Below, piece by piece: positions 25,689-49,900 of a stretch of DNA of 64,000 nt. Where the stretch lies: the NCBI GenBank assembly GCA_034520665.1, contig JAXHNJ010000003.1:11057-75056 (forward strand). Direction: 5' to 3'. The notes beneath the pieces are model-generated. The model was not told the origin of the DNA. It saw only the letters and a program-made list of their open reading frames with translations, and ran no database searches. How positions within the stretch are numbered: the first letter of the stretch is position 1; the number at the start of each line of letters is the position of its first letter. The DNA is from Patescibacteria group bacterium (lineage in GTDB: Bacteria > Patescibacteriota > Patescibacteriia > JAXHNJ01). The position numbers and the translations under genes are program-made.

Positions 25689-25738
25689 TAAAATAATAGA
25701 GTCTTTTAAAAAAGTTTTAAAAAAAACCGAAGATGAAT

Positions 25739-35614: not shown

Positions 35615-35618
35615 TAAT

Positions 35619-36662
35619 ATGTTTAAATTAAATCCATTTAAAAACTCGTTTGGCCTTGATTTATCGGAAGATGCTATCCGGTTGGTTAAAATTGATAAAA
35701 AGAAAAAAAAATTAATTAGTCTTAATGAAGAAAATATAGAGCCTGGAATTATTGAAGATGGTGAAATTAAAGAAGAAAAAAAATTAAAAAAATATATAAG
35801 TAAATTAATAGAAAAACCACATGGTCATAAATTAAGAACCAAATTTGTTCACTGCGGTATACCGGAAAGAAAAACTTTTATCAAATTAATAGAAGTAAAT
35901 AATCGCCACAAGTCTAGTCTTTCCGAAGCTATTAAATGGGAAGCTTCACAACATATTCCTTTTAGTCCGGATAAAATTTATCTTGATTGGAATATTATTA
36001 AAACAAAAAATGCTAACAATAACGCCAGCGTACTTGTCGGAGCCGCTCCCAAAATAATTATTGATTCATATTCTAAAATCATAAATTCAGTAAATTTAAC
36101 CCCATTATCTTTTGAAATGGAATCCGTAGCCACTATCCGTGCGATAATTGCTCAAAATAATAAAATTTCCCAAACAACTTTAGTTATAGATTTAGGCGGT
36201 AATCACACAAACTTAATAATTTTTGACAGAAATTCAATCCAATTTTCATCCTCACTTACATTTTCCGGTGAAAAAATAACAAAAAAAATTATGGAGAAGC
36301 TTAAAATAAACAGAGAAGATGCTGAAAAACTTAAAATACTTTACGGGCTTGAGAAAAAAAAGGGCAAGGGTAAAATAAGAAAGGTCATAGAACCTGAATT
36401 TAATAAATTAACAGATAAAATAAACGAAATTGAAAGCTTCTATATAAATCATTTTCCTCATAGTAATAAAATTAAAGATATTATTCTTTGCGGCGGTGGC
36501 TCTCAGCTAAAATATCTTCCTCAACTTATCAGTCATAAAACTAAAAAATCCACCATCCTAGCTAATCCACTAAACTATCTCAATTCTGATAAAAAAATTA
36601 AAAATATTATTAAGAAAAACTCACCTTCATTTACCACCGCTATTGGTCTGGCTCTAAAATAA
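35619..36662 (+). CDS. pilM: type IV pilus assembly protein PilM
   Basis: 347 aa. Actin-like ATPase fold markers (FGLDLSEDAIRLVKI at the N-terminus, ILCGGGSQL). Confidence 0.75.
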   Translation: MFKLNPFKNSFGLDLSEDAIRLVKIDKKKKKLISLNEENIEPGIIEDGEIKEEKKLKKYISKLIEKPHGHKLRTKFVHCGIPERKTFIKLIEVNNRHKSSLSEAIKWEASQHIPFSPDKIYLDWNIIKTKNANNNASVLVGAAPKIIIDSYSKIINSVNLTPLSFEMESVATIRAIIAQNNKISQTTLVIDLGGNHTNLIIFDRNSIQFSSSLTFSGEKITKKIMEKLKINREDAEKLKILYGLEKKKGKGKIRKVIEPEFNKLTDKINEIESFYINHFPHSNKIKDIILCGGGSQLKYLPQLISHKTKKSTILANPLNYLNSDKKIKNIIKKNSPSFTTAIGLALK

Positions 36663-36670
36663 ATATATTT

Positions 36671-37240
36671 ATGATTAAATTAAATCTACTTTCAAATCAA
36701 AAGAAGAAAGAACTTAAAGAGTACAAAATTCTTAACACCTTTAGAATAGCTTCTTATTTGGTTATAGTTTTTTTAGTTTTGATCATTATGTCTTTGTATG
36801 GCGTTAGTTATTATCTTAGTAACCAGGTAAAAGAAATTAGTGATAAAAATGAAGCTAGTCAAAATAGACAGTCACAAGAAGGTAATATTAGTTATTCAAA
36901 AACAATATCTGAAATAAATAGTGATATTCAAGATATAAAAAAAATACAATCTGATTATATAATTTTTTCCGATTATCTTAAAGATTATACCAAGATAATC
37001 CCCTCTGATCTGAAGCTTACAAATCTGAGTGTAAATAACGAAACTAATCTTATACAAATAAAAGGTCTGGCTCCTACCCGCGAGGTTTTTTTGCAATTTA
37101 AAACAAATTTGGAAAACTCTAATCTCATTAAAGAAATAGATTCTCCCATTTCAAATTTAATAAAAAAAGTTAATGTGGATTTTACTATTAGTGGAAAAAT
37201 GATATTAGACAGTTATAATATCAACAATTATGAAATTTAA
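36671..37240 (+). CDS. pilN: type IV pilus assembly protein PilN
   Basis: 189 aa. IKLNLL N-terminal motif, single TM, coiled coil; follows pilM. Confidence 0.6.
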   Translation: MIKLNLLSNQKKKELKEYKILNTFRIASYLVIVFLVLIIMSLYGVSYYLSNQVKEISDKNEASQNRQSQEGNISYSKTISEINSDIQDIKKIQSDYIIFSDYLKDYTKIIPSDLKLTNLSVNNETNLIQIKGLAPTREVFLQFKTNLENSNLIKEIDSPISNLIKKVNVDFTISGKMILDSYNINNYEI

Positions 37241-37760
37241 AGAAATAAAATTAATTTATACGGCTGTTTTATTAGGAGCTATTATAGCTGTCTATATTTT
37301 TTTAGTAATGCCTTTAAGATCATCAATAAGTCAAACCAGACAAAATCTGCAAAATCAAAAAATAACCCAAGAAATACTTAAAAACCGTTCAGAGAATATT
37401 AGCACTTATAAAAAAGATATTGAGGAAATTAAGACTAAAAAAAACCGTTTAGAAGATATGTTTATAAGCTCCGAAAAACAAATTGATTTTTTCCGGCAAT
37501 TAGAGAATGTTGCCAAAGATTTAAACTTAAACTTAAATTATACCCTTGAGCAAACTTCTAATAATAAAGATAATATAAAAACCGTTAATCTAAAGATTAA
37601 ACTTGACGGAGCCTATACTGATAATCTTAAATACCTAGCTTCATTAGAGGCTTTACCTTATTATATTAAAACTAGTAATATTAGCTTTACCAATAGTAAT
37701 AATTCTAATATCACCGTCAATATTCAAGCAATAACTTATTGGCAAAACAATGAAAATTAA
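37230..37760 (+). CDS. pilO: PilO-like bitopic pilus assembly protein
   Basis: 176 aa. N-terminal TM plus coiled coil, position after pilN. Confidence 0.45.
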   Translation: MKFKEIKLIYTAVLLGAIIAVYIFLVMPLRSSISQTRQNLQNQKITQEILKNRSENISTYKKDIEEIKTKKNRLEDMFISSEKQIDFFRQLENVAKDLNLNLNYTLEQTSNNKDNIKTVNLKIKLDGAYTDNLKYLASLEALPYYIKTSNISFTNSNNSNITVNIQAITYWQNNEN

Positions 37761-38016
37761 TTTTGATAAAGAAAAAATTTATAAATTATTCAAGAAAAAT
37801 ATAGTAATTTTAATAATAATTATATTTTCTATAGTTTTTTTAGAAAACCTCTATTTCATTTATAAAAATATAAGAGAACCAAGCATTAATGAAGCTCAGC
37901 TTTCAAGTCAAGAAGAAAAAATTAATAATAAATTATATAATCAAATAATTGAAAAAGATAATAAAAAAACCAATCCAAGAATTGATCGGATGGATAATTT
38001 GAATAACCCTTTTTAA
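37750..38016 (+). CDS. small bitopic membrane protein (end of pilus operon; PilP-like position)
   Basis: 88 aa, one TM. Confidence 0.3.
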   Translation: MKINFDKEKIYKLFKKNIVILIIIIFSIVFLENLYFIYKNIREPSINEAQLSSQEEKINNKLYNQIIEKDNKKTNPRIDRMDNLNNPF

Positions 38017-38041
38017 TAAGTTTTAATTAAAAAAGTGTTTA

Positions 38042-39217
38042 TTACTTTTGGGGTGAACGCGCCCTGATTTTTTTTATCAAGTTAGGCAAAACCCTTAAAA
38101 ACTTTTCCACTTCTTCTTTGGTATTATGACGGCCTAAACTAATCCTAATAGCCCCATGACATCTACTTTCTGACAAACCCATGGCTTTCAAAACATGAGA
38201 GGATTTTAAAGAAGCTGAGGCACAAGCCGAGCCAGTGGAAACAGCCAATCCCTCTTTATCCAGCATTAAAAGTAAAGACTCCCCTTCAATATTATCAAAA
38301 GTAAAATTAATATGTCCGGGAGATCTTTTTAATAAGTCTCCGTTAAATATAGCCCCTTTAATATTTATCTTAACTTCTTTTATTATTTTCTGAGAAAAAT
38401 TAAATAACTTTTTATAATCCTTTTTCCTTTTTTTCCTCACCATTTCCAAGGCCTCCCCCAGACCAACAATTAAAGGCGTGTTAAGAGTACCGGGTCGAAC
38501 ACCATTTTCATGATGGCCACCGAAAATTATTGGCTTTAGATTAAGATTTTTTTTAAGATATAAAAGCCCCACGCCTTTTGGTCCATAAATTTTATGAGCC
38601 GATAAAGAGAGCGTGTCCACCCCTAATTTATCTACTGCCAAAGGAAAAAGAGCGGCCGCTTGAACAGCGTCAGTGTGAAATATAATTTTATTTTTTCTGG
38701 ATTTATTATTAGACTTAATTATAGCTCCGATTTTTTCAATTGGCTGTCTGGCTCCGGTTTCATTATTAATATACATTAAAGAGACTAAAAAAGTTTCTTT
38801 TCTAATAGCTTTTTTAAAGACCTTTTCATTAATTAAGCCCTTATTATTGACTGGCAAATAAGTAACTTTAAAGCCTTTTGATTCCAGGGCTTTGACTGTT
38901 TCTAATACCGCCGGATGTTCAATAGCCGTAGTAATTATATGTCCAAAATTATTCTTCCTTTTTAAAGCCACTCCTTGCAAAGCTAAATTTATGCTTTCAG
39001 TGGCTCCGGAAGTAAAATATATTTCTGCTTCCGAGCAATTTAAAAAATTAGCGGCTTGTCTTCTGGCCTTTTCAAGGCCTTGATTGGCTTTTTGTCCCGG
39101 TGAATGTAAAGAGTTAGGATTAGCAAAAATAGTCTTAAAATAAGGTCGCATAGCTTTAAAAACCAAGGGTTCTAAAGGCGTGGTAGCCGCGTGATCAAAG
39201 TATATATATTTATTCAT
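38042..39217 (-). CDS. cysteine desulfurase (class V aminotransferase, IscS/NifS-like)
   Basis: 391 aa. FDHAATTP N-terminus, PLP-Lys motif SLSAHKIYGPKGVG, active-site loop SSGSAC-like (STGSACAS). Confidence 0.9.
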   Translation of the reverse strand: MNKYIYFDHAATTPLEPLVFKAMRPYFKTIFANPNSLHSPGQKANQGLEKARRQAANFLNCSEAEIYFTSGATESINLALQGVALKRKNNFGHIITTAIEHPAVLETVKALESKGFKVTYLPVNNKGLINEKVFKKAIRKETFLVSLMYINNETGARQPIEKIGAIIKSNNKSRKNKIIFHTDAVQAAALFPLAVDKLGVDTLSLSAHKIYGPKGVGLLYLKKNLNLKPIIFGGHHENGVRPGTLNTPLIVGLGEALEMVRKKRKKDYKKLFNFSQKIIKEVKINIKGAIFNGDLLKRSPGHINFTFDNIEGESLLLMLDKEGLAVSTGSACASASLKSSHVLKAMGLSESRCHGAIRISLGRHNTKEEVEKFLRVLPNLIKKIRARSPQK

Positions 39218-39269
39218 AAAAAAATATATTAATTAATAAGTATTTCAATTATAACTAATAAAAGCCGGG

Positions 39270-39298
39270 TTGACAAATAAGAAGATCTATTATAGAAT
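39270..39298 (+). promoter_or_regulatory. sigma-70-type promoter for rpmA
   Basis: TTGACA, 17-nt spacer, TAGAAT (extended TATAGAAT). Transcription would start just before octamer array E. Confidence 0.55.
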
Positions 39299-39300
39299 AT

Positions 39301-39425
39301 TAATAATTAAAACCTAACTAATCAACTCAACCAATTAACTAAATTAACTAATCAACTAAACAACTAATTAACCATTCAACTAAACAACTAATTAACTAAA
39401 TTAACTAATCAACTAATTAACTATT
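39301..39425 (+). repeat. octamer array copy E (longest, about 15 units; 5' leader of rpmA)
   Basis: aacctaactaatcaactcaaccaattaactaaattaactaatcaactaaacaactaattaaccattcaactaaacaactaattaactaaattaactaatcaactaattaactatttc, ending 4 nt before the rpmA ATG. Confidence 0.8.
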
Positions 39426-39428
39426 TCT

Positions 39429-39710
39429 ATGGCCCATAAAAAAGCCGGCGGTTCCACTTCATTAGGCCGCGATTCAACCAGTAAAAGATTGGGGGTTAAG
39501 ATCCATCATGGCGCCTTGGCCCAGGCGGGCTCTATTATTATCCGTCAGAGAGGAACTAAATTCAGACCTGGTAAAAATGTCAAAAAAGGAGCTGATGACA
39601 CCCTTTATACCACCACCACTGGTTATGTTGAATTTATTAAACGCAAACTAAAAAGATTTGACGGTAAAATAAAACCGGCCCGTATAGTTAACATCATCCC
39701 CAAAAAATAA
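39429..39710 (+). CDS. rpmA: 50S ribosomal protein L27
   Basis: 93 aa. [16 protein letters not shown]...[30 protein letters not shown] is nearly canonical bL27. No rplU upstream. Confidence 0.95.
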
Positions 39711-39777
39711 AAATCACCTGCCAATTTATTTTATATTAACAGGTGGTTTTTTAATTAATAAATATTATCACAAAAAT

Positions 39778-40575
39778 TTACTCTTTGGTTATTTTAAAAA
39801 CTTGATCCTTAACTTTAGATGGATAATTTTTTGCCTGCTGCCAAACTATATCAAACTGTCCTTTCATCATTTTAGATAGTTCCTCGCTTTCTATCAAAAA
39901 ACCGTAATTTTCTTTACTTGAAGAGAGAAAGCGCACTGTACTTCCGTAAATCACATACCCGAGGGAAAAATTTACACTTTTGGGAGCAATTTTTACTTTT
40001 CTTTTGTTCTCCTTGTCTATTCCTAAAAAAGGATATTTTTTAATAGAAGGAATTTGCGAAGCTGGCCAAATAGTTTTAAGGCTGATATTTCTGGCTATCC
40101 TTTCCTGATGAAATTTAATTAAAAAGCTCTTTCCCAATATTTTTATCATTTTCATAATGGGCCAGTAAGCTCTGACTTTAATATCACGGTATAAAAGCAT
40201 ATCTTTCATCATTTGCTGCAAAGCCGATTGTCCATGATAAATTTGCAAACTCGGTTCTTTAATCGAATCATTTTTATATAACTTTTCCAAAGACTTAAAG
40301 GATTTTCTGGCTTTTTCAAATTCTTTTTCCTTTTCTGATAAAAGTATATTTAACTTTTCAGGATTCTTAACCGCATATTGGTTAACTCCAGCCTTGGGAG
40401 ACTCGAAAATTAAACCTTTATCTATCATTTTTTCTAAAAGATCATAAACAGAAGTCCGGCTGATATTAACTTTCTTGGCTAAAGTGGAAGCGGTCATTTC
40501 TCCTTCGAAGAAAAGCTTTTCAAAAAGTTCTATTTCTATTCTTCTTAAATTAAATTGTCTTAAAAATTCTTTCAT
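39778..40575 (-). CDS. TrmB-family transcriptional regulator
   Basis: 265 aa. N-terminal wHTH (ASTLAKKVNISRTSVYDLLEKMIDKGLI) plus a TrmB C-terminal-like domain. Confidence 0.7.
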   Translation of the reverse strand: MKEFLRQFNLRRIEIELFEKLFFEGEMTASTLAKKVNISRTSVYDLLEKMIDKGLIFESPKAGVNQYAVKNPEKLNILLSEKEKEFEKARKSFKSLEKLYKNDSIKEPSLQIYHGQSALQQMMKDMLLYRDIKVRAYWPIMKMIKILGKSFLIKFHQERIARNISLKTIWPASQIPSIKKYPFLGIDKENKRKVKIAPKSVNFSLGYVIYGSTVRFLSSSKENYGFLIESEELSKMMKGQFDIVWQQAKNYPSKVKDQVFKITKE

Positions 40576-40653
40576 ATTGTTTACTGTTGTGGATATGTCA
40601 CGACACTGTTTACACTACTCCCCTATTACTGTAATGTCAAGGCAAAGTCTGTT

Positions 40654-41040
40654 ATGTTCTTTAAAAATGAAAGGAAAGAGATGGAAAGTAGGCCAAAGAC
40701 ACGCTCTTGGGGAAAACATAATTTTTCACGCTTTCAACATATGTGTGAATTATTCAGATGTCCGAGTTGCGATTATAATTTCGGACATCAACTCACTAAC
40801 TGTTTTCCTTATACAGTTGGTTATAGTAATAAACCAGACTACAAAAAAAACCATCGTGAACAAGGTATACTACTTTTAGAGTGCCCTCAATGTTTTGAGA
40901 TTATCTGGTTTCATTATCCAGGAGATATCTTTATCAGCTCTGTAATAAGAGAATTAAAGAAAAATCCAAAATACTTTAAAGTCGCTGGTACTAAAGAGGC
41001 TTTTCTAGTCAGTATAAAAAGGAGGAAGAAAGATGTCTGA
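40654..41040 (+). CDS. zinc-ribbon containing hypothetical protein
   Basis: 128 aa. CPSCDYNF...CPQCFEI Cys pairs; located at the edge of the repeat island. Confidence 0.4.
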   Translation: MFFKNERKEMESRPKTRSWGKHNFSRFQHMCELFRCPSCDYNFGHQLTNCFPYTVGYSNKPDYKKNHREQGILLLECPQCFEIIWFHYPGDIFISSVIRELKKNPKYFKVAGTKEAFLVSIKRRKKDV

Positions 41041-41215
41041 ACATAAAAAAATAGCCAAGAGATGTGAGTTTTTGGCTAAGACTAATCTAGATTTGCAACA
41101 GCAAATTATTGCACTCAATGACCGTTTCATAGAGGTCTGTAAAGATAAAATTGAACTCATTGACGAAAAAAAAGAACTGGAAGATTTGCTTAGAGAAAAA
41201 AGAGGAGGAAATTAA
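41033..41215 (+). CDS. small coiled-coil protein
   Basis: 60 aa, heptad-like, overlaps the upstream ORF by 8 nt. Its 3' end plus terminator is duplicated at 42876-42950. Confidence 0.3.
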   Translation: MSEHKKIAKRCEFLAKTNLDLQQQIIALNDRFIEVCKDKIELIDEKKELEDLLREKRGGN

Positions 41216-41254
41216 AAAAGAGCTCGGTTTTTAAGCTCAAACTAATTTTACCAG

Positions 41255-41285
41255 GCTGCGCTTTTTAAGCGCAGCTTTTTTTTTA
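41255..41285 (+). terminator. rho-independent terminator
   Basis: gctgcgc-tttttaa-gcgcagc followed by a T9 run, downstream of the 40654-41215 ORF pair. A related hairpin plus T-run copy is at 42927-42954. Confidence 0.65.
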
Positions 41286-41560
41286 TTTAATGAATCCTGA
41301 ATAGAAATCTGATGCTTAGACAGGTATTGAGTCTCCCGGATAATATCTGCTAAACACGCCATTTTTTGCGTAAGCGGAGATTTATTCCCGCTATTTTTAA
41401 TAAGAAATGAGTGTTTGGTAAATTGAAAAATAAAATTTATATACAAAGAATAATTTATGCCAAATTATTATTAATACCCTAAATTATACCAAAAAGAAGT
41501 TTAATTATCTTCTTAATGCTTATGTAATTATGATAAAACAGGCTCATTTAATTTTGACAT

Positions 41561-41585
41561 CTGGAGATAAATCTCCAGCTACGCG
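41561..41585 (+). repeat. REP-like palindrome, family 1
   Basis: ctggagataaatctccagctacgcg. Confidence 0.8.
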
Positions 41586-41594
41586 GTTGGAGAG

Positions 41595-41652
41595 GTGGAG
41601 ATGGGGATCTGAACCAGAGTCGCGCTAAGCGCGACTTACTAAATAAGATATA
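41595..41652 (+). repeat. 58-nt repeat with agtcgcgc-taa-gcgcgact palindrome
   Basis: gtggagatggggatctgaaccagagtcgcgctaagcgcgacttactaaataagatata; second copy at 42808-42865. Confidence 0.7.
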
Positions 41653-41653
41653 T

Positions 41654-41678
41654 CTGGAGATAAATCTCCAGCTACGCG
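41654..41678 (+). repeat. REP-like palindrome, family 1
   Basis: ctggagataaatctccagctacgcg. Confidence 0.8.
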
Positions 41679-41725
41679 ATTGGAGAGGTTTGTTTACGAG
41701 TAGGTAAAAGATTTATCTCCGCTAA

Positions 41726-41835
41726 TTTACCAAGAAGTCTGAACTTAGTAAATATATTGCCAGAACCGGTCTGGGGACCAGTTCTTCTCGCGAAAAAATC
41801 TTTTTTAAAATATCGCCATATGAATGTTGCGCCAA
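41726..41835 (+). pseudogene. third, internally deleted RAYT-fragment copy plus shared 3' extension (cttttttaaaatatcgccatatgaatgttgcgcc)
   Basis: Matches 42570-42701 except for a deletion of about 20 nt; the 3' extension motif occurs again at 42150-42192. Confidence 0.6.
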
Positions 41836-41883
41836 ATTATATTTTATATTATTTAATAGCCTGGCGCCGGATTTATCCGGCGA

Positions 41884-42150
41884 TTTATGTTTTGCTAATT
41901 GGTTATGGTTATAGCAGCTAGTAAGGTTTTGGTTGTGGGTTTGGAATAAAAAACCATTGACTCAGCCTAATAACCAAACTAGCGGCTCGGCCCAAAACCC
42001 TCTTTTTTGCTAATTGGTTATGGTTATAGCAGCTAGTAAGGTTTTGGTGGTGGGTTTGGAATAAAAAAACCATTGACTCAGCCTAATAACCAAACTAGCG
42101 GCTCGGCCCAAAGCACTTTGTTTTAAGGCTAATTGGTTTATACTTGTGGA
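41884..42150 (+). repeat. tandem direct repeat, about 124-nt unit, 2.2 copies
   Basis: Unit tgctaattggttatggttatagcagctagtaaggttttggt.gtgggtttggaataaaaaaccattgactcagcctaataaccaaactagcggctcggcccaaa...; copies about 95% identical. Confidence 0.75.
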
Positions 42151-42281
42151 GTAATCTTTTTAAAATGTCGCCATATAAATGTTGCGCCAGGAAATAATAT
42201 TATTCTAATCTCTCTGGCGCCGGCTTCTAAGCCAGTGCTATAAGTTTGTATATTAAAAAATAGAATCTAATTACTTTCTAT

Positions 42282-42347
42282 CGCCTAGGCAAAAGATTTA
42301 TCTCCGCGTTTAAATAAAATCGCCTAGGCAGAAATCTCTATTCCCGC
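42282..42347 (-). repeat. composite repeat, family 3, second copy
   Basis: cgcctaggcaaaagatttatctccgcgtttaaataaaatcgcctaggcagaaatctctattcccgc. Confidence 0.7.
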
Positions 42348-42476
42348 TATATATTAAATATTCAAATAGTATGCTTTTGTTTAAATTTATTTTAATATCG
42401 ATAAATCAGGCGTAGAGGCGGGTCATGGCCCGCACCGCCTTATAAAACAAACTGCCAAGGAAACCCTTAAAATTAC

Positions 42477-42653
42477 CCGAGAAGCGCGGATCTCCTGATC
42501 CGCGTCACCTTATTCGGTTGGATCAGGAGATCCAACCTTCTCGAGCAAAAATAGATTATTAAATCTCTAATTCACCGAGAAGCTCTGGCCCCCAGGCCTT
42601 GAGCTTAGTAAATATATTGCCAGAACCGGTCTGGGGACCAGTTCTTTTCGCGA
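42477..42653 (+). pseudogene. second copy of the 177-nt hairpin plus RAYT-fragment repeat
   Basis: Nearly identical to 25512-25688. Confidence 0.7.
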
Positions 42654-42950
42654 AAAAACCTTTTTTAAAATATCGCCATATGAATGTTGCGCCGGGTTGT
42701 ATTTTAAATTATTAAACCTTCTGTGAACGAATTTATTCGGCGCTATGTTCTTAAAAAAAATGATACATTCTCACGCTTTCGCGTGGACACCACTTACTAT
42801 TGTTAAAGTGGAGATGGGGATCTGAACCACAGTCGCGCTAAGCGCGACTTACTAAATAAGATATAGAAAAGATCAGGGAGGAAATTAAAAAAGAGCTTGG
42901 TTTTTAAGCTCAAATTTTTTTCCCAAGGCTGTGGTAAACACAGCCTTTTT

Positions 42951-44582
42951 TTATTTCTTACAAACTTGTAAAAACTCGACAAACAAAGGATGGGGATTTA
43001 AAAATTGGGATTTATACTCCGGATGAAACTGCACGCCAATAAAAAACGGATGGTCTGAAATTTCCACGGCTTCCACTAATTTACCATCCGGCGAAGTACC
43101 GGCTATGGTCAAACCTTTTTTTTCCATTTTAGCCCGGTAAGCCGTATTAAACTCATAACGGTGGCGATGACGCTCCTGAATTTTTCTTTTATTTTTATAA
43201 GCTTTAGCTAACCGAGTACCTTTGATTATTTTACAGGGCCAGTTGCCGAGACGAATGGTACCACCGTATTGCTTTTTGGCTAGATATTTTTCTTGATCAG
43301 GCATAACATGAATAATTGGATGAGGGGTTTTGGGGTCAATTTCACTGGAATTGGCCTTTTTTAGCTTTAATACATTTCTAGCAAATTCAATAACCGCCAT
43401 TTGCATACCATAACAAAGACCTAAATATGGGATAAAATTCTCGCGCACATACTTGATAGTTTTAATTTTGCCCTCTGAACCCCTTGAACCCCAGCCCTGC
43501 GGCACCACTATGCCGTCATAATTTTTTAATTTTTTCACGTTTTGCGGTTTTCTTTCAAATTCTTCGGCGTTTATCCATGTCAGTTCTAATTTAGCTGTAT
43601 TAGCCCAAGCCGCGTGCTTTAAAGACTCAATTACAGAAATATAAGAATCCGCTAAAATAAAATCTCCTACGCCAAAATATTTACCAACAATACCGATTTT
43701 TACCTTTTTTCTGGCTCGTTTTGATTTATTTATTATTTTTTGCCATTCTTTTAAATCTCCTTTTCTTGGCCTTAGACCAAAATTTTTCAGTATTTTACGG
43801 GCTACTTTTTGCTTGGAGAAATTTAAAGGAATTTCATAAATATTATCTACGTCAACCGCTGAAATAATATTTTCCGGATCAACATTACAATTAGTGGATA
43901 ATTTCTCCCGGCGAGGTTTATCAAGCGGTTTTTCGGCCCGACAAAAGAGAAAGTCTGGCTGAATACCGGCTGAATTCAAAGTGCGTACAGCGTATTGAGT
44001 CGGTTTGGTTTTCATTTCACCAATTTTACTGGGAATAGGCAGATAACTGACTAAAATATATTGGACTTGTCCCGGGTTTTTTAAATTCATCATTCTGGCT
44101 GCTTCTAAAAATAATAGATTTTGATATTCGCCAACTGTACCACCGATTTCAATAATAATAAAATCAGCTTTTGATTTACGGGCTAGTTTTTTAATGCGTC
44201 TTATTACTTCGTTGGGAATATGAGGCACTACTTCGACACATTTGCCGTTAAATTCCAGGTTTCTTTCTTTTTGGATAACCGACCTATAAACAGACCCGGT
44301 GGTCATGTAATTGTCTTTGTTTAATTCCTGGCTTAAAAATCTCTCATAATTACCGATATCCTGATCAGTTTCCAAACCATCCTGAGTAACAAAAACTTCT
44401 CCGTGCTCGGTCGGGTTCATGGTACCGGCGTCAACATTTACATAAGGATCAATTTTCATAGCTGAGACCCGATAACTTTTGCTTTTTAAGAGACGAGACA
44501 AAGAAGAAACCGCAATGCCTTTACCTAAACCGGACAAAACCCCGCCCATGACAAATATAAATTTTGTTTTAGTTTTTTTCAT
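42951..44582 (-). CDS. pyrG: CTP synthase
   Basis: 543 aa. N-terminal synthetase (FIFVMGGVLSGLGKG) and C-terminal GATase (GLCYGMQ). Confidence 0.95.
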   Translation of the reverse strand: MKKTKTKFIFVMGGVLSGLGKGIAVSSLSRLLKSKSYRVSAMKIDPYVNVDAGTMNPTEHGEVFVTQDGLETDQDIGNYERFLSQELNKDNYMTTGSVYRSVIQKERNLEFNGKCVEVVPHIPNEVIRRIKKLARKSKADFIIIEIGGTVGEYQNLLFLEAARMMNLKNPGQVQYILVSYLPIPSKIGEMKTKPTQYAVRTLNSAGIQPDFLFCRAEKPLDKPRREKLSTNCNVDPENIISAVDVDNIYEIPLNFSKQKVARKILKNFGLRPRKGDLKEWQKIINKSKRARKKVKIGIVGKYFGVGDFILADSYISVIESLKHAAWANTAKLELTWINAEEFERKPQNVKKLKNYDGIVVPQGWGSRGSEGKIKTIKYVRENFIPYLGLCYGMQMAVIEFARNVLKLKKANSSEIDPKTPHPIIHVMPDQEKYLAKKQYGGTIRLGNWPCKIIKGTRLAKAYKNKRKIQERHRHRYEFNTAYRAKMEKKGLTIAGTSPDGKLVEAVEISDHPFFIGVQFHPEYKSQFLNPHPLFVEFLQVCKK

Positions 44583-45019
44583 TATTTTATAGTCAGTTTT
44601 AACTTAGCTTCTTGATCAGCTAATTTAATTTTGATATTAGACTGACCGGTTTGTTTAATCGGTTTATCTAAAATAATATTTTTTTCTTTTAAATCAAGAT
44701 TGAAATTTTTCTTAATTTTTTTTAATATATCACTTTTATGTACCGCTGCAAAAAGATGACCTTCCTCATTAGACTTCATTTTTAAAGTTATTTCTTTGCT
44801 TTTGAAAGTTTCTAATATTTTTTCATTCTCTTTTTCTTGTCTTAATTTTCTTTTTTCTCTTTTTTTTGCTTTTTTCTTAGCCGTTTTAATTTTATTAGGA
44901 GTGGCTTTTTCGGCTAAATTTTTGGCGATTAAAAAATTTCGGGCGTAACCTGGAGAGACTGCCTTAACTTCACCTTTTTGGCCCAGTTTTTTTATGTCTT
45001 CTTTTAAAATAATTTTCAT
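44582..45019 (-). CDS. rplI: 50S ribosomal protein L9
   Basis: 145 aa. MKIILKEDIKKLGQKGEVKAVSPGYARNFLI matches the L9 N-domain consensus. Confidence 0.85.
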   Translation of the reverse strand: MKIILKEDIKKLGQKGEVKAVSPGYARNFLIAKNLAEKATPNKIKTAKKKAKKREKRKLRQEKENEKILETFKSKEITLKMKSNEEGHLFAAVHKSDILKKIKKNFNLDLKEKNIILDKPIKQTGQSNIKIKLADQEAKLKLTIK

Positions 45020-45022
45020 AAA

Positions 45023-45298
45023 TTAATATTTTATTTTGAAATTTTGGTAATTTTTTTTATTTTCTAGATATTTTTTATCAATATTTTGTATTTGTCCTGG
45101 TGTCCGGCCACTTTTTAGCCAAGAAAAAAAATCTTCTAGTTTATTTTCAGAGCCAACCACTATTATTTCCACCCGGCCGTCATTAGTATTTCTGACATAG
45201 CCTTTTAAATCTAAATCTCTGGCTACTTGTTTTATATTATAACGCATATTCACCCCTTGAACAAGGCCTTCAAGCATAATTTTAACTCTTTTAATCAT
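45023..45298 (-). CDS. acyP: acylphosphatase
   Basis: 91 aa. V.GLVQGVNMR...GYVRNTNDGRVEI acylphosphatase signature. Confidence 0.85.
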   Translation of the reverse strand: MIKRVKIMLEGLVQGVNMRYNIKQVARDLDLKGYVRNTNDGRVEIIVVGSENKLEDFFSWLKSGRTPGQIQNIDKKYLENKKNYQNFKIKY

Positions 45299-45301
45299 TT
45301 A

Positions 45302-46540
45302 TTACCTCTGGTTTATTTCTTCTTTTATCAATTCTAAAGCTTTATCAAACTGGGGGTCTTTGTCATTATCAAAATCTTCCTGGGTTAGCTCTACTTCAAC
45401 ATCCGGAGTAATCCCTTTTTCATTAATATTATGTCCTTTAGGGGTAAGCCATTTAGCGGTGGTTAATTTAAGAGAAGAGCCGTCAGAAAATTGTTCATAC
45501 TCCTGGACTGAACCCTTACCAAAAGAGGTTTCACCGACAAGGGTGGCCTGATTATAATCTTTTAAAGCACCGGCTACAATTTCAGAGGCAGAAGCACTTC
45601 CTTCATTAATAATTACCGTCATCGGATAGCCTTGTAATTTAGCTTCCCCCTTAGCTTGGTACTCGGTAATATTCTCCTCAGAAAATTTTTCTTTAACAAT
45701 AACTCCCTCTTCTATAAAAAGCGAAGCTACTTTTATAGAGGTTTCTAAATAGCCTCCTGAATTGTTCCGCAAATCTAAAATGATACCTTGAACATCTTTA
45801 AGTAAAAAATCATTAGTGGCTTGGTCAAGTAAATTCATAGTGTCATCAGTAAAACTTGATATTTCTAAATAACCAATTTTTTTATCTTGGCTGGTAATAA
45901 TACTCCAATCAACACTTTTTATGTTAATTTTATCTCTGGTTATTTTTATATCTTTAAGCTCTTCCAATCCCTCCCTGGCCACAGTCAAAGTAACGGCCGT
46001 ATCCTTTTCCCCTCTGATTAAAGAAACCGCGTAATCCAAACTCATATTAGTCGTTTCTTGCCCGTCTATTTTAATAATTTTATCTTTGGCCTGTAAACCA
46101 GCTTTCTTAGCCGGTGAACCCTCTAGAGGAGCGATAACCTGCAGCTGATTATTTTTGATACCAATTTCAGCGCCAATACCCTCAAAACTGCCCTCAATTT
46201 CATTCAAAAAGACTTTTGATAGCTCAGGATTAAGAAAAGTGGAATAAGGGTCTTCCAGGCTGTTTACTAGGCCAGAAATAGCCCCATAAAGCATTTTTTG
46301 TTTATCAAGAGAACCATTAACATAATTTTCTTCAATGGCATGCCAAACCTTATTAAAAAGTATATAATTAACTGAGGAATTATTATCTGACAACAGACTT
46401 AAAGCCTCTTTTAAGGAAACATTTTTTTGCCAGGAAGAATTAGAGGAAAAACCCAATAAAAAACCGCCAATAAAAGCAGCCAGGATAAAAAAAACAACTA
46501 GAGTAATTAAATATTTTCTTTTACCAGTTTTATTATTCAT
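45302..46540 (-). CDS. ctpA: S41 C-terminal processing peptidase with PDZ domain
   Basis: 412 aa. N-terminal TM, PDZ domain, catalytic region (DLRNNSGGYL, SASASEI). Confidence 0.88.
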   Translation of the reverse strand: MNNKTGKRKYLITLVVFFILAAFIGGFLLGFSSNSSWQKNVSLKEALSLLSDNNSSVNYILFNKVWHAIEENYVNGSLDKQKMLYGAISGLVNSLEDPYSTFLNPELSKVFLNEIEGSFEGIGAEIGIKNNQLQVIAPLEGSPAKKAGLQAKDKIIKIDGQETTNMSLDYAVSLIRGEKDTAVTLTVAREGLEELKDIKITRDKINIKSVDWSIITSQDKKIGYLEISSFTDDTMNLLDQATNDFLLKDVQGIILDLRNNSGGYLETSIKVASLFIEEGVIVKEKFSEENITEYQAKGEAKLQGYPMTVIINEGSASASEIVAGALKDYNQATLVGETSFGKGSVQEYEQFSDGSSLKLTTAKWLTPKGHNINEKGITPDVEVELTQEDFDNDKDPQFDKALELIKEEINQR

Positions 46541-47792
46541 TGTTTATTCTCTTTATATCCGCCCCTAAATCTTTTAATCGCCGGTCAATATCTTCATAGC
46601 CTCGGTCAATTATTTCGGCTTGGTCAATTTCAGTGGTGCCTTCGGCAATGAGCCCGGCAATAATAAGAGTAGCGCCGGCTCTAAGGTCAGGGCTTTTGAT
46701 AAATTGGCCAAAAAGCGGTGTCGGACCGGTAATTAAAACGCGGTGCGGATCGCAAATAGTAGCGTTAGCCCCCATTTTCATTAATTCTTTAATATGGCTC
46801 ATACGGTTTTCAAAAAGAGGGTCATGAATTAAGCTGGTGCCCGGGCATTGGGTGGCCAAAACGGAAAAAGGAGCCTGTAAATCTGTGGGAAACCCCGGAT
46901 AGGGCATGGTTTGCACTTTAAAAGATTTCAAGCTTCTGGATTTTTTTATTTTAATATAATTTTTTTTCTCTTCTAATTTTACACCGGCCGCTTTTAATTT
47001 TAATACTACGCTTTCCAGATGTTCCGACACCACTTGTTTGATAGTTAATTTCGAACGGGTAGCCGCAGCCATAACTGCAAAAGTGCCGGCTTCTATCTGA
47101 TCCGGTATAATTTTATAAGAACCGCCTTTTAATCTTTCAACTCCTCTTATTTTCAGAGTATGAGTGCCAATGCCTTTTATTCTAGCTCCGAATTTATTAA
47201 GAAAATTACACAAATCCTGCACATGTGGCTCAGCGGCCGCCATTTTAATAGTGGTCAGGCCTTGAGCTAAAACAGCAGCCATAATCGCGTTTTCTGTTGC
47301 AGTAACTGAAAATTCTGGTAAAATAATAGTAGAACCTTTGAGATTCTTAGCTTTTAAAATATACTCTTCGTTTTTTTGCTCTATTTTAGCCCCTAGTTTT
47401 TTAAAAACATACAAGTGAGTATCAATCGGTCGGCTACCAATAATACAGCCGCCGGGTTGGGGAATTCTTACCTCTTTGAAACGAGTCAAAAGAGGAGCTA
47501 ATAAAAGTATGGAAGAGCGCATGGCTTCAACTTTTTCTTTGTTCAACTGGTTAAAACTAATATCCCCGGCCGAAACTTTTACTACATTATTTTTAAAATT
47601 GACCGCCACTCCTAAACTCAACATAATTTCTATTAAAGTTCTGACATCGGCAATATTAGGCACATTTTTTATAACAAAATTTTTATCAGATAAAAGAGTA
47701 GCCGCTAGAATCGGAGTCGCCGCGTTTTTCATACCGGATATATTTATTTCTCCTTTAAGGGATTTACCACCCTCAATAACAAATTTAGACAT
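46533..47792 (-). CDS. murA: UDP-N-acetylglucosamine 1-carboxyvinyltransferase
   Basis: 419 aa. EPSP-synthase-like fold, MSKFVIEGGKSLKGEINISGMKNAATPILAATLL, catalytic Cys region (GGCIIGSRPID). Confidence 0.93.
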   Translation of the reverse strand: MSKFVIEGGKSLKGEINISGMKNAATPILAATLLSDKNFVIKNVPNIADVRTLIEIMLSLGVAVNFKNNVVKVSAGDISFNQLNKEKVEAMRSSILLLAPLLTRFKEVRIPQPGGCIIGSRPIDTHLYVFKKLGAKIEQKNEEYILKAKNLKGSTIILPEFSVTATENAIMAAVLAQGLTTIKMAAAEPHVQDLCNFLNKFGARIKGIGTHTLKIRGVERLKGGSYKIIPDQIEAGTFAVMAAATRSKLTIKQVVSEHLESVVLKLKAAGVKLEEKKNYIKIKKSRSLKSFKVQTMPYPGFPTDLQAPFSVLATQCPGTSLIHDPLFENRMSHIKELMKMGANATICDPHRVLITGPTPLFGQFIKSPDLRAGATLIIAGLIAEGTTEIDQAEIIDRGYEDIDRRLKDLGADIKRINNE

Positions 47793-47847
47793 ATTTTATA
47801 CAAATCAATTGTTTATATTTTAACTTTAATATTAAAATTAGTCAAAG

Positions 47848-49161
47848 ATGACGATTAAAAAAAGAAGAATATTTTACCTGGCGCTTTTTTTGGTATTTAT
47901 TATTTTGGCCCCGATAATAGTTTTATACGCTACCGGCTATAATTTTAATATTGGGCAGAAAAAATTCACTAAAACCGGTTTTCTGGCGCTTGATTCCTAC
48001 CCTCAAAACGCTGATATCTATATTGATAACACAATCACTAAAGAAAAAACCCCGGAAAAATTCCGCTACCTCAGCCCCAGGCTTTATAATATTAAGATTA
48101 AAAAAAGCGGCTATACTGACTGGTCAAAAAATTTAAAGATACTGCCAAACCTATCTACTTTTGCCGAAAAGATAGTTTTATTTTTAAAAAAGCCCTTAGC
48201 TGAAAATTTATTAGAAGAAAATATTACTCAATATAAAGTTTCCCCAAATGGTGAAAAAATAGCTCTTGTTATAAAAAAAAATGATTATCAAGTTTTAGTT
48301 ATTGACTTAAAAAATAAAAATAAAAAAGTGATTAAAAAGTCTATTAAGTCACCGATTACCCAAATCGAATGGATTGATAATTTTTTGTTTTTAGCCGGGA
48401 AAAATGAGGAAAAAAACGAGTACCAGATTATCAGTACCATTTATTCAGAAGAAATAAATCTTTCCGAAATTTCTGATAAAGAGTTTACAAAAATAGAGCC
48501 TTATAAAGATAACTTTTATACTTTATCGGAAAATATTCTTTACAAAATTGATTTATCAAATAAAAAATTAACTAGAGTTTCTGAAAAACAAGTAAGTGAT
48601 TTTACAGTCAAAAATAATATTTATTATATTGGAAAAAATAATCAAGAAAAGAATCTTTATCGTCTTGAAAACGATGAAGATAAAATAATAGACAATTTAA
48701 ACTATAAACTTAATTATCGTTTTATTAGTTTAAAAAATAATAATTTCATACTGGCTTCAGAAAATAATTTTTTTCTTTATAAAGATGAAAATATAAGAAT
48801 AAATTTTAATCAAAAAATTACAAAGGCTGAGATTTCTCCAGACAGTAAAAAATTAATGTATTATAATTCTCATGAAATTTGGCTTTATGACTGGGAAAAA
48901 GAAGAAAATCATTTAATTACTCGCATCAGTGAAGAAATAAAAAATTCTTTTTGGTATCCGCGCCACCATTACATAGTTTATGAAGCAGCTAATACTATTA
49001 AAGCCACCGAGGTAGATTTAAGAGATAAACGCAATCAAATCACTCTGTATGCGGCTTCTGAAAATATTGATTTTATTTCTTTGGTTTCAGAAAAATATTT
49101 ATCTTTGATAACCAAAAAAGAACCATTGTCGGTTCTTAAATTGCTAAAAATACAAAAATAA
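47848..49161 (+). CDS. membrane-anchored PEGA-domain protein with C-terminal beta-rich domain
   Basis: 437 aa. N-terminal TM, then a PEGA-like segment (ADIYIDN...TPEKF.YLSPRLYNIKIKKSGYTDW), remainder repeat-like beta structure. Confidence 0.45.
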   Translation: MTIKKRRIFYLALFLVFIILAPIIVLYATGYNFNIGQKKFTKTGFLALDSYPQNADIYIDNTITKEKTPEKFRYLSPRLYNIKIKKSGYTDWSKNLKILPNLSTFAEKIVLFLKKPLAENLLEENITQYKVSPNGEKIALVIKKNDYQVLVIDLKNKNKKVIKKSIKSPITQIEWIDNFLFLAGKNEEKNEYQIISTIYSEEINLSEISDKEFTKIEPYKDNFYTLSENILYKIDLSNKKLTRVSEKQVSDFTVKNNIYYIGKNNQEKNLYRLENDEDKIIDNLNYKLNYRFISLKNNNFILASENNFFLYKDENIRINFNQKITKAEISPDSKKLMYYNSHEIWLYDWEKEENHLITRISEEIKNSFWYPRHHYIVYEAANTIKATEVDLRDKRNQITLYAASENIDFISLVSEKYLSLITKKEPLSVLKLLKIQK

Positions 49162-49162
49162 T

Positions 49163-49882
49163 TTAGCTTTCGTTTTTTTCAGCCATAATTTTATTAGCCC
49201 GAAAGAGTGATTTAAAAGTGCCGGCATCAGTCCAGTTATTCTTAACCATAGCAAATTTCATCTTCTTATCTTTGATGTAATGATTATTAACGTCAGTAAT
49301 TTCTAGCTCTCCCCGATCAGAAGGTTTGAGGGTTTTGATAATTTCAAAAACATGATTATCATAGAGATAAAGCCCGGTCACGGCCAGGTTAGTGGCCGGA
49401 TTTTTCGGTTTTTCTTCAATCTTGGTAATTTTATCTCCCTCAACACTGGCTACGCCAAATCTTTCCGGATCGGCAACTTCTTTAATAAAAATCATTGATC
49501 CGTCTTGGTGTCGGGCAAAATCCTGCATTGGCGCGGCAAAATTATCAACAAAAATATTATCTCCCAAGATCACGGCTATTTTCTCTTCATCAGCAAAGTC
49601 ACGAGCCAAACCCAAGGCCTGGGCAATACCGCCGGCTTCTTCCTGGATTTCATAGGTTAGATTAACCCCAAATTCGCGGCCTGAACCGAGTAAATTAAGA
49701 AAATGACCGGCGTGTCCTGGTCCGGAAATAATTAGAATATCTTTAATACCGGCTCTAATCAGAGTTTCCAAAGGATAATAAATCATCGGCTTGTCATAAA
49801 CCGGTAATAAGTGTTTATTGGTTACTTTAGTGAGCGGCTCCAGGCGTGAACCGGTACCGCCAGCTAAGACTATTCCTTTCAT
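49163..49882 (-). CDS. rmlA: glucose-1-phosphate thymidylyltransferase-like sugar nucleotidyltransferase (short form)
   Basis: 239 aa. MKGIVLAGGTGSRLEPLT..K.LLPV nucleotidyltransferase signature; placed with rmlD and rmlB. Confidence 0.75.
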   Translation of the reverse strand: MKGIVLAGGTGSRLEPLTKVTNKHLLPVYDKPMIYYPLETLIRAGIKDILIISGPGHAGHFLNLLGSGREFGVNLTYEIQEEAGGIAQALGLARDFADEEKIAVILGDNIFVDNFAAPMQDFARHQDGSMIFIKEVADPERFGVASVEGDKITKIEEKPKNPATNLAVTGLYLYDNHVFEIIKTLKPSDRGELEITDVNNHYIKDKKMKFAMVKNNWTDAGTFKSLFRANKIMAEKNES

Positions 49883-49900
49883 AGTTTATATTCTATTATT

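Follow-up and report, generated by a model that had tools for sequence, protein, structure and literature searches.

A cluster of tagged REP hairpins on RAYT gene debris beside pyrG in a Patescibacteria genome

The largest intergenic gap in a 64,000-nucleotide stretch of a Patescibacteria MAG (hereafter the window) is occupied by clustered REP hairpins with GTAG tags, most of them paired as dimers, upon pieces of a decayed gene for a REP-associated tyrosine transposase (RAYT). Lying beside pyrG at positions 41216-42950, this island measures 1735 nt, against a median gap of 6 nt in a genome of ~35% G+C. We read it, with a probability of roughly 0.8, as a non-coding, lineage-specific REP cluster that grew over a wrecked REPtron (a RAYT gene with flanking REPs). 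The island is real but largely ordinary, its kind being well known in other bacteria; in Patescibacteria, REPtrons and REP clusters are apparently undescribed, and a full-text literature search for RAYT or REPIN together with Patescibacteria returned no paper.

The first-pass annotation had described the stretch as an ORF-free island tiled by at least six interleaved repeat families, and every repeat on its list was found again, offset by no more than a few bases from the position it had assigned. The description as ORF-free holds, as the longest ORF has 69 aa, overlaps the terminators and found no match in PHROG. UGA is recoded in some Patescibacteria, which would favor a hidden protein gene read by another genetic code or by frameshifting, and a gene of this kind was sought; however, no frame exceeds 95-96 codons when TGA or TAG is read as sense, the neighboring genes translate cleanly in table 11 (TGA ends 5 of the 31 long ORFs checked), and the sole protein similarity in the island is to RAYT, in pieces with stops and frame breaks, leaving a hidden gene with a negligible chance. 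Searches of the neighboring small ORFs against Pfam, PHROG and NCBIfam gave nothing except a TrmB-like HTH for 39778-40575, and a tRNA/tmRNA search of the island and window found no match.

Repeats recurring within the window cover 53% of the island, 85% of it can be assigned to a named element, and BLAST E-values for the repeat pairs (1e-13 to 1e-99) lie beyond chance. The features of the island, 5' to 3', and three related features elsewhere in the window are:

41191-41285, plus strand: module T1, the last codons of a 60-aa ORF (ORF60, 41033-41215) and two terminator-like hairpins from the terminator scan (41220-41238 and 41253-41277)
41368-41391, plus strand: degenerate tagged REP, GCGTAAGC-GGAGATTTATTCCC-GC, aligning with the REP family, immediately upstream of the RAYT N-terminal remnant
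41437-41556, plus strand: old RAYT pseudogene fragment, residues ~25-64 (tblastn)
41559-41596, minus strand: REP1 copy a, with its GTAG tag at 41579-41582 (reverse strand) and hairpin CTGGAGATttATCTCCAG at 41561-41578
41595-41652, plus strand: 58-nt repeat, copy 1, whose degenerate REP-like arm precedes a GTAA-tagged hairpin, GTCGCGCttaGCGCGAC (41618-41636)
41652-41689, minus strand: REP1 copy b, forming with 41697-41722 a tail-to-tail dimer whose tags face inward
41697-41722, plus strand: REP variant CGAGTAG-GTAAAAGATTTATCTCCGC
41730-41800, plus strand: RAYT fragment, residues ~97-121, containing hairpin AGAACCGGTCtgggGACCAGTTCT (tblastn, E=4e-5)
41802-41882, plus strand: B unit, copy 1, in which an AT-rich spacer separates a decayed CGCAACATgaATGTTGCG-type hairpin from hairpin CGCCGGATttATCCGGCG
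41890-42145, no strand assigned: tandem array, unit 115 nt, 2.2 copies (TRF, 90% matches)
42157-42240, plus strand: B unit, copy 2 (repeat family and alignment)
42282-42357, plus strand: head-to-tail tagged REP pair, CGCCTAGGC-AAAAGATTTATCTCCGC, spacer, CGCCTAGGC-AGAAATCTCTATTCCCGC
42409-42439, plus strand: second REP family, GCGTAG-AG-GCGGGTCATGGCCCGC, with an inverted relative at 52290-52325
42440-42658, plus strand: RAYT fragment, residues ~80-121, with two head-to-head REP dimers inside (tblastn)
42662-42745, plus strand: B unit, copy 3 (alignment, BLAST)
42755-42807, plus strand: 'CACGCtttcGCGTG-GACA...TTAAA' element, one copy in the window
42808-42865, plus strand: 58-nt repeat, copy 2
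42864-42954, plus strand: module T2, in which the ORF60 3' end is repeated along with terminator hairpins at 42893-42911 and 42925-42947
25433-25909, plus strand: in a third island, RAYT residues 66-136 with stops, then REP1 and a composite REP pair
51364-51792, minus strand: the RAYT copy that is best preserved, with residues 55-197 at 86% identity to the intact RAYT P0001
51787-52040, no strand assigned: REP cluster directly upstream of that RAYT remnant, homologous to 41559-41722

GTAG-tagged REPs have stems of 6-9 bp, loops of 2-3 nt, and head-to-head (HH) or tail-to-tail (TT) dimers (Di Nocera et al. 2013, PMC3733652). The island hairpins share this anatomy: a short palindrome with an 8-bp stem, inside the 5-13 bp range for REP units of 20-40 nt, and a 2-nt loop (CTGGAGATttATCTCCAG / GCGGAGATttATCTCCGC), an unpaired GTAG or near variant (GTAA, GAAG) at the hairpin end, and organization into HH and TT dimers and clusters. 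The heptamer CGCGTAG abuts the stem in six window copies, and likewise in the metagenomic loci L082, L083 and L084. In a set of 13 copies from the window and these three loci (L082 and L084 share one metagenome), the stem is 98% paired, three of its eight pairs change on both sides, and its covariation score was reached by none of 500 shuffles, showing compensatory conservation.

The REP1 pattern matches six times in the window (0.00 expected): the two annotated island copies, 97% identical to each other, are joined by others at 25737 and, reverse-complemented, at 51951-51986 and 52017-52037, and the CGAGTAG-GTAAAAGATTTATCTCCGC variant recurs at 25834, 42282 and, reverse-complemented, 51787. 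We take the enrichment of tagged hairpins from a strict scan for a tag with a perfect stem of 7 bp or more directly after it, which counted 17 sites in the window (1.6 expected; maximum of 6 in 100 shuffles); a looser scan for tagged stems of at least 6 bp with one mismatch allowed gave counts no different from shuffles. The tagged hairpins, thus roughly tenfold enriched, gather in the four largest intergenic gaps of the window. Three REP/RAYT islands (25.2-26.1, 41.2-43.0 and 51.4-52.3 kb) hold 12 of the 17 strict sites, as well as 20 of the 28 G+C-rich perfect hairpins of the window.

Tail-to-tail dimers lie at 41654-41722 and at 2070-2153 of L082, and head-to-head dimers at 42479-42542 and 25514-25577. 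As single-stranded DNA the dimers fold as single long hairpins (42479-42542, -21.8 kcal/mol, z = -6.5; 41654-41722, z = -2.6), so that two REPIN traits, inverted dimer architecture and the long hairpin, are seen within the 64-kb window. The GCGTAG-AG-GCGGGTCATGGCCCGC hairpin, annotated near 42407 with an inverted copy and found at 42409-42439 and 52290-52325, folds with z = -2.8. REP1-type copies (six plus variants in 64 kb of a ~1-Mb genome) are all extragenic or pseudogene-borne, and since every one of them adjoins RAYT-derived sequence, what recurs within the window could be the decayed REPtron as a whole and not free REPs; clusters of REPs without detectable RAYT-coding similarity exist in L083 and L084. 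REP1 is missing from 81 loci (80 pyrG loci plus the metagenomic contig L001), which confines the family to the closest relatives of the window, and neither REP1, the 58-nt hairpin nor the 115-nt unit matched viral contigs, so nothing ties them to phage.

Both copies of the palindrome-containing 58-nt repeat are present and 98% identical (41595-41652 vs 42808-42865, BLAST); the first folds with z = -3.3 and -4.2, and its hairpin also appears in the strict scan. The composite repeat at 42282 (family 3 of the annotation) recurs at 25834-25909 with 91-92% identity. A duplicated module of gene 3' end plus terminator was likewise recovered as a direct repeat, 41191-41258 being 81% identical to 42864-42931 with a 97% core (41204-41241). 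The B unit, of ~80 nt and missing from the first-pass list, occurs three times (41802, 42157, 42662), and a perfect form of its first, CGCAACATgaATGTTGCG-type hairpin is present in L084, which also has two copies of the 'CACGCtttcGCGTG-GACA...TTAAA' element (BLAST against the window, 77%). A tandem duplication had been reported with a 124-nt unit; the array stands, with a period of 115 nt. Each 115-nt unit forms one long, imperfect palindrome (fold z near -2 on either strand), the first two are 98% identical by BLAST, and no further copy was found by BLAST within the window or in the viral-contig scan. The six families are thus recurrent, as claimed, while as independent mobile elements they do not stand, most of them falling into a single system of GTAG-, GAAG- or GTAA-tagged hairpins and RAYT debris; no RAYT link is demonstrated for the 115-nt unit, the B unit and about 15% of the island. 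Irregular spacings (93, 115, 355, 505, 860, 1213 and 1673 nt) and units that differ each time exclude a CRISPR array.

RAYT pieces number three in the island, where two had been recognized, one in island 25 (25.2-26.1 kb), and a 143-residue remnant at 51.4-51.8 kb. The overlooked N-terminal piece (41437-41556) carries a decayed HUH motif, 'AYVIMIKQAHLIL', and is matched in tblastn by the intact RAYTs P0001 (E=5e-5) and P0003 (3e-6). The two other pieces are tied to the remnant ORF at nucleotide level: 41739-41789 and 42553-42646 match the reverse complement of 51603-51698 at 94-96% identity, and 41730-41800 shows 94% identity to that of 51603-51653. The remnant itself encodes both 'NHLH' and 'YIHFNPV' (51792-51364), although its first ~54 residues are gone, with REPs in their place, and its sole ATG-started ORF, annotated as a 122-aa hypothetical protein, begins past the HUH motif. 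On the NCBIfam model for REP-associated tyrosine transposases (REP_Tyr_transpos, cut-off 80) it scores 65 bits, truncated to model positions 57-146, compared with 105 bits for the intact, 200-aa P0001, which also matches Pfam Y1_Tnp. All other window copies carry stop codons, and no copy encodes an intact protein having both the HUH motif and the catalytic tyrosine; judged by their sequences, the RAYT copies of the window are pseudogenes rather than functional RAYTs. With REPs at 51787-52040 abutting the 5' end of the remnant, the arrangement is that of a REPtron, a RAYT flanked by REPs of its own genome. In L088, the intact RAYT has an extragenic REP dimer 1.3 kb upstream, on the far side of uppS.

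Near-identical tracts connect the islands. Within the third RAYT fragment, copy 41b is 99.5% identical to island 25 over 42477-42658 (25512-25693) and, over the overlapping stretch 42604-42693, 98% identical to copy 41a (41744-41833); it is a recombinant mosaic. Together with the RAYT pseudogene pieces and the variability of the locus, this mosaic bears out the earlier reading of the island as a graveyard or recombination hotspot.

Comparison with sister genomes, proposed with that reading, shows how far the locus varies. The gap between pyrG and rpmA spans 53-70 nt in the two closest GTDB genomes (L002 and L019), 595 nt in the nearer metagenomic relative L082, and 3.24 kb in the window. L082 carries the same old RAYT N-terminal remnant, REP1 junction and REP dimer at this position (87% identity over 41437-41556 and the junction). 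Module T2, which abuts the pyrG stop codon in the window, is missing from L082. The TrmB-ORF128-ORF60 cassette, which the window has and L082 lacks, may be an insertion in the former or a loss in the latter; the junctions of this cassette and of the T1/T2 duplication are AT-rich with no significant flanking repeat.

Part of the internal order of the island might instead be an assembly artifact, with repeats collapsed or mis-joined in the MAG. The Logan contigs, assembled independently from the same sequencing run (SRR26473340), agree with the window at 100% and stop at 41584, inside REP1 copy a, and at 42836, inside the second 58-nt copy, where contig L001 ends; the order of pieces in the inner 1.25 kb (41585-42835) comes from the MAG assembly alone, and a search by way of two island ORFs found no independent contig spanning it. 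However, both edges (with the RAYT N-terminal remnant, T1, REP1 and T2) are borne out at 100%, in L082 the locus independently has REPs together with that RAYT remnant, and the other two islands show the same families in contiguous sequence, so that we regard an artifact as improbable. REP/RAYT islands break short-read assemblies and lead to spurious gene calls, the 122-aa RAYT stump annotated as a 'hypothetical protein' being one.

The suggestion that the island encodes structured RNAs found no support: Rfam 15 gave no match in the whole window at the gathering threshold, the best sub-threshold hit in a permissive search (E = 0.05) falls on the terminator module, and the hairpins score similarly on both strands, as DNA palindromes would. 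A mainly RNA-level function, as 3'-UTR stabilizers, terminators or small RNAs serving pyrG and the small ORFs, would account for the excess of terminator-like sites (10 against 1.8 expected in the terminator scan), for the position of T1 and T2 exactly at gene ends, and for a REP variant (GCAAAAGAT...ATCTCCGC) that pairs only via G-T/G-U on one strand; many REPs have also been argued to act as RNA (Di Nocera et al., PMC3733652). Set against the symmetric folds and the silence of Rfam, and against relatives in which L082 conserves nothing past the REP dimer and RAYT remnant while L002 and L019 make do with one 40-nt bidirectional terminator at the same position, we think such a function unlikely to be the main one. 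For ORF60 and pyrG, some influence on transcript termination or stability may be supposed.

The anatomy, RAYT homology and variability among relatives described above suggest a history for the REPtron wreck. A HUH/Y1 RAYT gene with neighboring GTAG-tagged hairpins would have arrived between the convergent pyrG and rpmA in an ancestor common to L082 and the window lineage. The gene would then have decayed, leaving REPs directly after the HUH-coding region, and the locus may have grown by further tagged hairpins, mostly as inverted, REPIN-like dimers, by local duplication (115-nt tandem, three B units, two 58-nt units, two terminator modules), and by homologous exchange with the two similar islands, which lie at distances of 17 kb and 9 kb. 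By analogy with characterized systems, the hairpins presumably spread through a RAYT recognizing hairpin and 5' GTAG tag on single-stranded DNA; later growth would need only recombination or replication slippage.

The REPs might still be active, an intact RAYT elsewhere in the genome mobilizing them in trans and the island being a live insertion hotspot, an option that we hold possible but doubtful. Accession and locus-tag numbering make it probable that P0001 (MDZ7798159.1) belongs to the same MAG, within its contig of 455,760 nt: the P0001 accession is 979 away from that of the window protein MDZ7799138.1, and the locus tag of the window protein (U5L76_06090) corresponds to roughly the 1218th gene. 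Several repeat pairs are 98-99.5% identical, and the near-identical 182-nt tract starts and stops at REP tags. On the other hand, the same-genome placement leans on those numbers, P0001 is only 86% identical to the remnant, and gene conversion between old homologous copies explains the near-identical tracts equally well, since the tract flanks are distantly homologous.

The REP cluster resembles known systems in most respects. With GTAG-tagged REPs, REPtrons and the E. coli REP/BIME elements it shares the unpaired GTAG, the 8-bp stem and the 2-nt loop. In the GTAG-tagged families, large clusters repeat flanking DNA, REPtrons occur, and sites between convergent ORFs are preferred (Di Nocera et al. 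2013, PMC3733652); shared as well are sub-families that differ by complementary stem changes, HH/TT dimers 20-100 nt apart, clusters reiterating dimers with flanking DNA, siting between convergent or co-directional ORFs, and RAYT genes with REPs directly beside them. It differs in its patescibacterial host, the known families being mostly proteobacterial; in adding GAAG and GTAA to the GTAG tag; and in having, within the window, none but broken RAYT copies. Its stem is CTGGAGAT/GCGGAGAT with loop TT, and its comparison with the 24 published families is one of anatomy. REPIN-RAYT systems of Pseudomonas and enterobacteria (Bertels & Rainey 2011, PMC3116915; Bertels et al. 2017, PMC5581495) likewise form one long hairpin from an inverted REP pair plus spacer and are associated with a Y1/HUH RAYT, and intact RAYTs of the present clade have conserved neighborhoods of a housekeeping type (uppS-RAYT in L088, L089 and L091, with a MgsA-like AAA gene after the RAYT in L088 and L089; a RAYT tightly packed between genes in L085). 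However, RAYT groups average 1.3-1.8 copies per replicon, compared with four RAYT-derived copies in 64 kb here, and the 64-kb window gives no evidence of a large REPIN population. IS200/IS605 elements share the Y1 HUH transposase and subterminal hairpins recognized on single-stranded DNA, and the window holds several gene-plus-hairpin copies, but no intact element with defined left and right ends; P0001 scores 24 bits on the IS200 model (cut-off 55), against its 105 on the RAYT model. Patescibacteria genomes are small and dense, and finding 1.7 kb of repeat debris and three smaller stretches in the same 64 kb means that selfish or domesticated DNA of the REP/RAYT type persists and turns over quickly even in such compact genomes.

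A separate observation, which may be new, concerns the RAYT genes of this clade: they carry in-frame REP dimers, always at one fixed site. There, between '...AKQIIxxL' and 'xLLxxF', the proteins are extended by anywhere from 0 to about 90 residues, which derive from hairpin pairs in head-to-head order inside a GAGAAG...CTTCTC bracket, and the same bracket encloses the two dimers of the island fragment 42440-42658 (42479-42542 and 42577-42649). Like Rickettsia palindromic elements and other intragenic REPs, these are in-frame inserts (adding 20-30 residues) that leave the gene intact, whereas here the host gene is the RAYT itself, with one insert site and a constant bracket; a search of Di Nocera et al. 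2013 (PMC3733652) for intragenic REPs turned up no insert of this kind within a RAYT. Clade RAYT genes may, rather speculatively, be a preferred landing site for REP dimers, in which case the RAYT fragments of the island would be REP-tag-bounded composites (such as the 182 nt of 42477-42658) moved or converted by cleavage at in-gene tags, and the transposase would cut, and perhaps regulate, its own gene. If general, in-frame REP dimers in intact RAYTs would offer a natural test for RAYT action on its own gene; in L088, the in-gene REP pair nearly duplicates an extragenic REP dimer close by.

The island (41216-42950) is a repeat-rich gap of 1735 nt in a low-G+C (~35%) Patescibacteria metagenome-assembled genome (MAG), bounded by a 60-aa ORF (41033-41215, +) on one side and the pyrG stop codon (42951-44582, -) on the other. 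No other intergenic gap in the window is as long, the median being 6 nt; the next three in size (892, 614 and 486 nt) likewise contain hairpin repeats. As the first-pass annotation proposed, it is free of credible ORFs, the longest (69 aa) crossing terminator hairpins. A coding gene under an alternative code is very unlikely: reading TGA or TAG as sense yields at most 95-96 codons, and TGA is the stop of 5 of the 31 long window ORFs checked. A tRNA/tmRNA search of the island found none, and the suggestion of structured RNAs is unsupported, with no Rfam match at gathering score (best sub-threshold E = 0.05, on a terminator).

Self-comparison recovered every repeat pair that had been listed, all of them recurrent; a tandem duplication described as 124 nt has an actual period of 115. 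Repeats with a partner inside the window account for 53% of the island, and ~85% of it is assignable to a named element.

Repeats of the island (pairs from self-comparison)
41559-41596 = 41652-41689, REP1 pair
41595-41652 = 42808-42865, 58-nt unit, 98% identity
41744-41833 = 42604-42693, repeat pair, 98%
42282-42357 = 25834-25909, composite REP, 91%
42477-42658 = 25512-25693, repeat pair, 99.5%
41191-41258 = 42864-42931, gene-end and terminator module, 81% (core 97%)
41890-42145, tandem array, period 115, 2.2 copies
41802, 42157 and 42662, ~80-nt unit in three copies, absent from the first-pass list

REP1 is a GTAG-tagged hairpin family, its core unit consisting of CGCGTAG joined directly to an 8-bp stem with a 2-nt loop, in two stem variants (CTGGAGATttATCTCCAG and GCGGAGATttATCTCCGC). 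The core pattern occurs 6 times in the window (0.00 expected). A strict scan for the tag G[TA]A[GA] set directly against a mismatch-free stem of 7 bp or more found 17 sites, where 1.6 were expected and none of 100 shuffles gave more than 6; 12 of the 17 fall in three islands (25.2-26.1, 41.2-43.0 and 51.4-52.3 kb). In an alignment of 13 copies, drawn from the window and three metagenomic loci, stem pairing reaches 98%, versus at most 63% for slid-partner controls, and three of its eight pairs differ on both sides (CT..AG vs GC..GC), giving a covariation score reached by 0 of 500 shuffles. REPs also form inverted dimers, of which that at 42479-42542 folds into one hairpin (-21.8 kcal/mol, z = -6.5).

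Inverted REP dimers
41654-41722, tail-to-tail (tags inward)
2070-2153 of metagenomic locus L082, tail-to-tail
42479-42542, head-to-head (tags outward)
25514-25577, head-to-head

Every REP1 copy in the window adjoins debris of a REP-associated tyrosine transposase (RAYT). The 122-aa ORF 51361-51729 (MDZ7799138.1, locus tag U5L76_06090), with the sequence immediately upstream, encodes residues 55-197 of a Y1/HUH protein ('...SANHLHTIIWPQGK...YIHFNPVRAKLV...YKYSS'), and is 86% identical to an intact 200-aa relative, P0001 (MDZ7798159.1). P0001 scores 105 bits on the NCBIfam equivalog 'REP-associated tyrosine transposase' (cut-off 80) and also passes Pfam Y1_Tnp; the truncated window copy, its first ~54 residues replaced by REPs reaching the HUH codons, scores 65. 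Upstream of this remnant lies a REP cluster homologous to that at 41559-41722 (inverted repeats I5, I9 and I10). Further pieces were located by tblastn with intact RAYTs as queries.

RAYT pieces
25433-25740, residues 66-136, with stop codons
41437-41556, residues 25-64, decayed HUH motif 'AYVIMIKQAHLIL', missed in the first pass
41735-41800, residues 100-121
42538-42657, residues 82-120, weaker similarity back to ~42440

No RAYT copy is intact in the window; since the accession numbers of P0001 and the window protein are only 979 apart, an intact one probably resides elsewhere in this MAG, on a different contig. A promoter-like site (41317-41344, +; TAGACA, 16 nt, GATAAT; 10 of 12 matches) lies directly upstream of a degenerate REP and the N-terminal remnant, and may be the former RAYT promoter.

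GTAG-tagged REPs are commonly found between convergent ORFs (PMC3733652). In the two closest GTDB genomes, L002 and L019 (pyrG 79% and 74% identical), rpmA (L27) is convergent to pyrG and lies 53-70 nt past its stop, separated by one bidirectional terminator, with gene order kept on both sides. The distance in the window is 3.24 kb, the L27-side terminator being kept at 39712-39752. A metagenome scan with the REP pattern located a nearer relative, L082 (pyrG ~84% nucleotide identity), whose 595-nt spacer contains the same RAYT N-terminal remnant (87% identity), joined to REP1 at an identical junction, as well as a REP dimer belonging to this family; the remainder is unrelated to the island. 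The locus is variable among these relatives. The shared remnant and junction suggest that RAYT landing and disruption are older than the split of the two lineages, and that all else would have turned over since. REP clusters are also present in L084, which comes from the L082 metagenome, and in the more distantly related L083, with no detectable RAYT-coding similarity in either; these hairpins thus also exist away from the RAYT gene.

Between the L27-side terminator and the island lies a lineage-specific cassette (39753-41215), missing at this locus in L002, L019 and L082, which comprises a TrmB-like HTH gene (39778-40575, -), a 128-aa Cys-rich ORF (40654-41040) and the overlapping 60-aa ORF; its only family match is the TrmB domain.

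Two Logan contigs of run SRR26473340 match 34778-41584 and 42836-49969 at 100%, independently confirming the island edges; they end inside REP1a (the copy at 41559-41596) and the second 58-nt copy. Piece order within 41585-42835 is that of the MAG assembly alone, and such REP/58-nt islands fragment short-read assemblies of the host.

The RAYT-derived piece 41b is a recombinant mosaic: 42477-42658 is 99.5% identical to the 25.2-26.1 kb island, falling to ~60% beyond this 182-nt tract, and the overlapping 42604-42693 shares 98% identity with piece 41a. The N-terminal remnant retains 30% protein identity to P0001, versus 94-96% nucleotide identity between the mid-gene pieces and the 51.7-kb copy, which suggests debris of at least two ages, or homogenisation by gene conversion. 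The earlier description as a graveyard or recombination hotspot was largely right, given the mosaic, the RAYT debris and the variable locus; a more apt description is a cluster of REPs built on a wrecked REPtron (a RAYT gene with flanking REPs), an already-known kind of element. Beyond the anatomy, family assignment, stem covariation, locus variability and mosaic established here, the RAYT would, from established knowledge, recognise hairpin and tag on single-stranded DNA and cleave there, as cited for E. coli RAYTs in PMC5581495; REP dimers are viewed as non-autonomous elements dependent on RAYT (PMC3337134).

The most promising lead is the RAYT gene itself. An alignment of 20 homologues has a single hypervariable site, with 0 to ~90 extra residues. 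In the DNA, these residues are invariably encoded by two hairpins placed head-to-head, in frame and bracketed by GAGAAG...CTTCTC.

In-frame hairpin dimers in RAYT genes of this clade
51600-51672 (-), window
3286-3358, L085
3275-3385, L088
2319-2382, L089
3275-3382, L091

The L088 pair is near-identical to a REP dimer that lies outside genes 1.3 kb upstream (1636-1716), and P0010 and P0013, both intact RAYTs, carry the window's second insert type ('SEKRGSPDPRHLIRLDQEIQPS', 42479-42542) in frame. Intragenic REPs in other genes are already known (PMC3733652), where we found no report of the RAYT gene as host. A full-text literature search found no paper joining RAYT or REPIN with Patescibacteria; the island adds a case from this phylum.

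Intact RAYTs of related Patescibacteria occupy a conserved position, uppS-RAYT in L088, L089 and L091 (RAYT at ~3001 or 2037), followed in L088 and L089 by an MgsA-like AAA gene; the L085 RAYT (3001-3618) lies 0-38 nt from its neighbours. This context looks housekeeping-like, not IS-like.

The three next-largest gaps are hairpin-repeat islands (25177-26068, 51730-52343 and 53364-53849). The second holds a 61-nt family in three copies (52055-52275; hairpin GCTGAACaaGTTCAGC), and the third a perfect 13-bp palindrome (53641-53668) with arms starting with GTAG and a 'TACGCCACT...AGTGGCTA' motif found again in the L082 spacer. A C/A-rich 'AACTAATTAACTAA' reiterated tract of ~110 nt (39320-39426) occupies the rpmA 5' leader, where a good promoter-like site (ttgaca...tagaat, ~39270-39298) precedes it, with similar tracts at two more gene boundaries (19275-19308 and 56211-56249). 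A 112-nt unit in three copies (12601-13330; 63-75% identity) lies within a 503-aa ORF (12201-13712), whose product looks internally repetitive; this repeat has no connection with the REP system.
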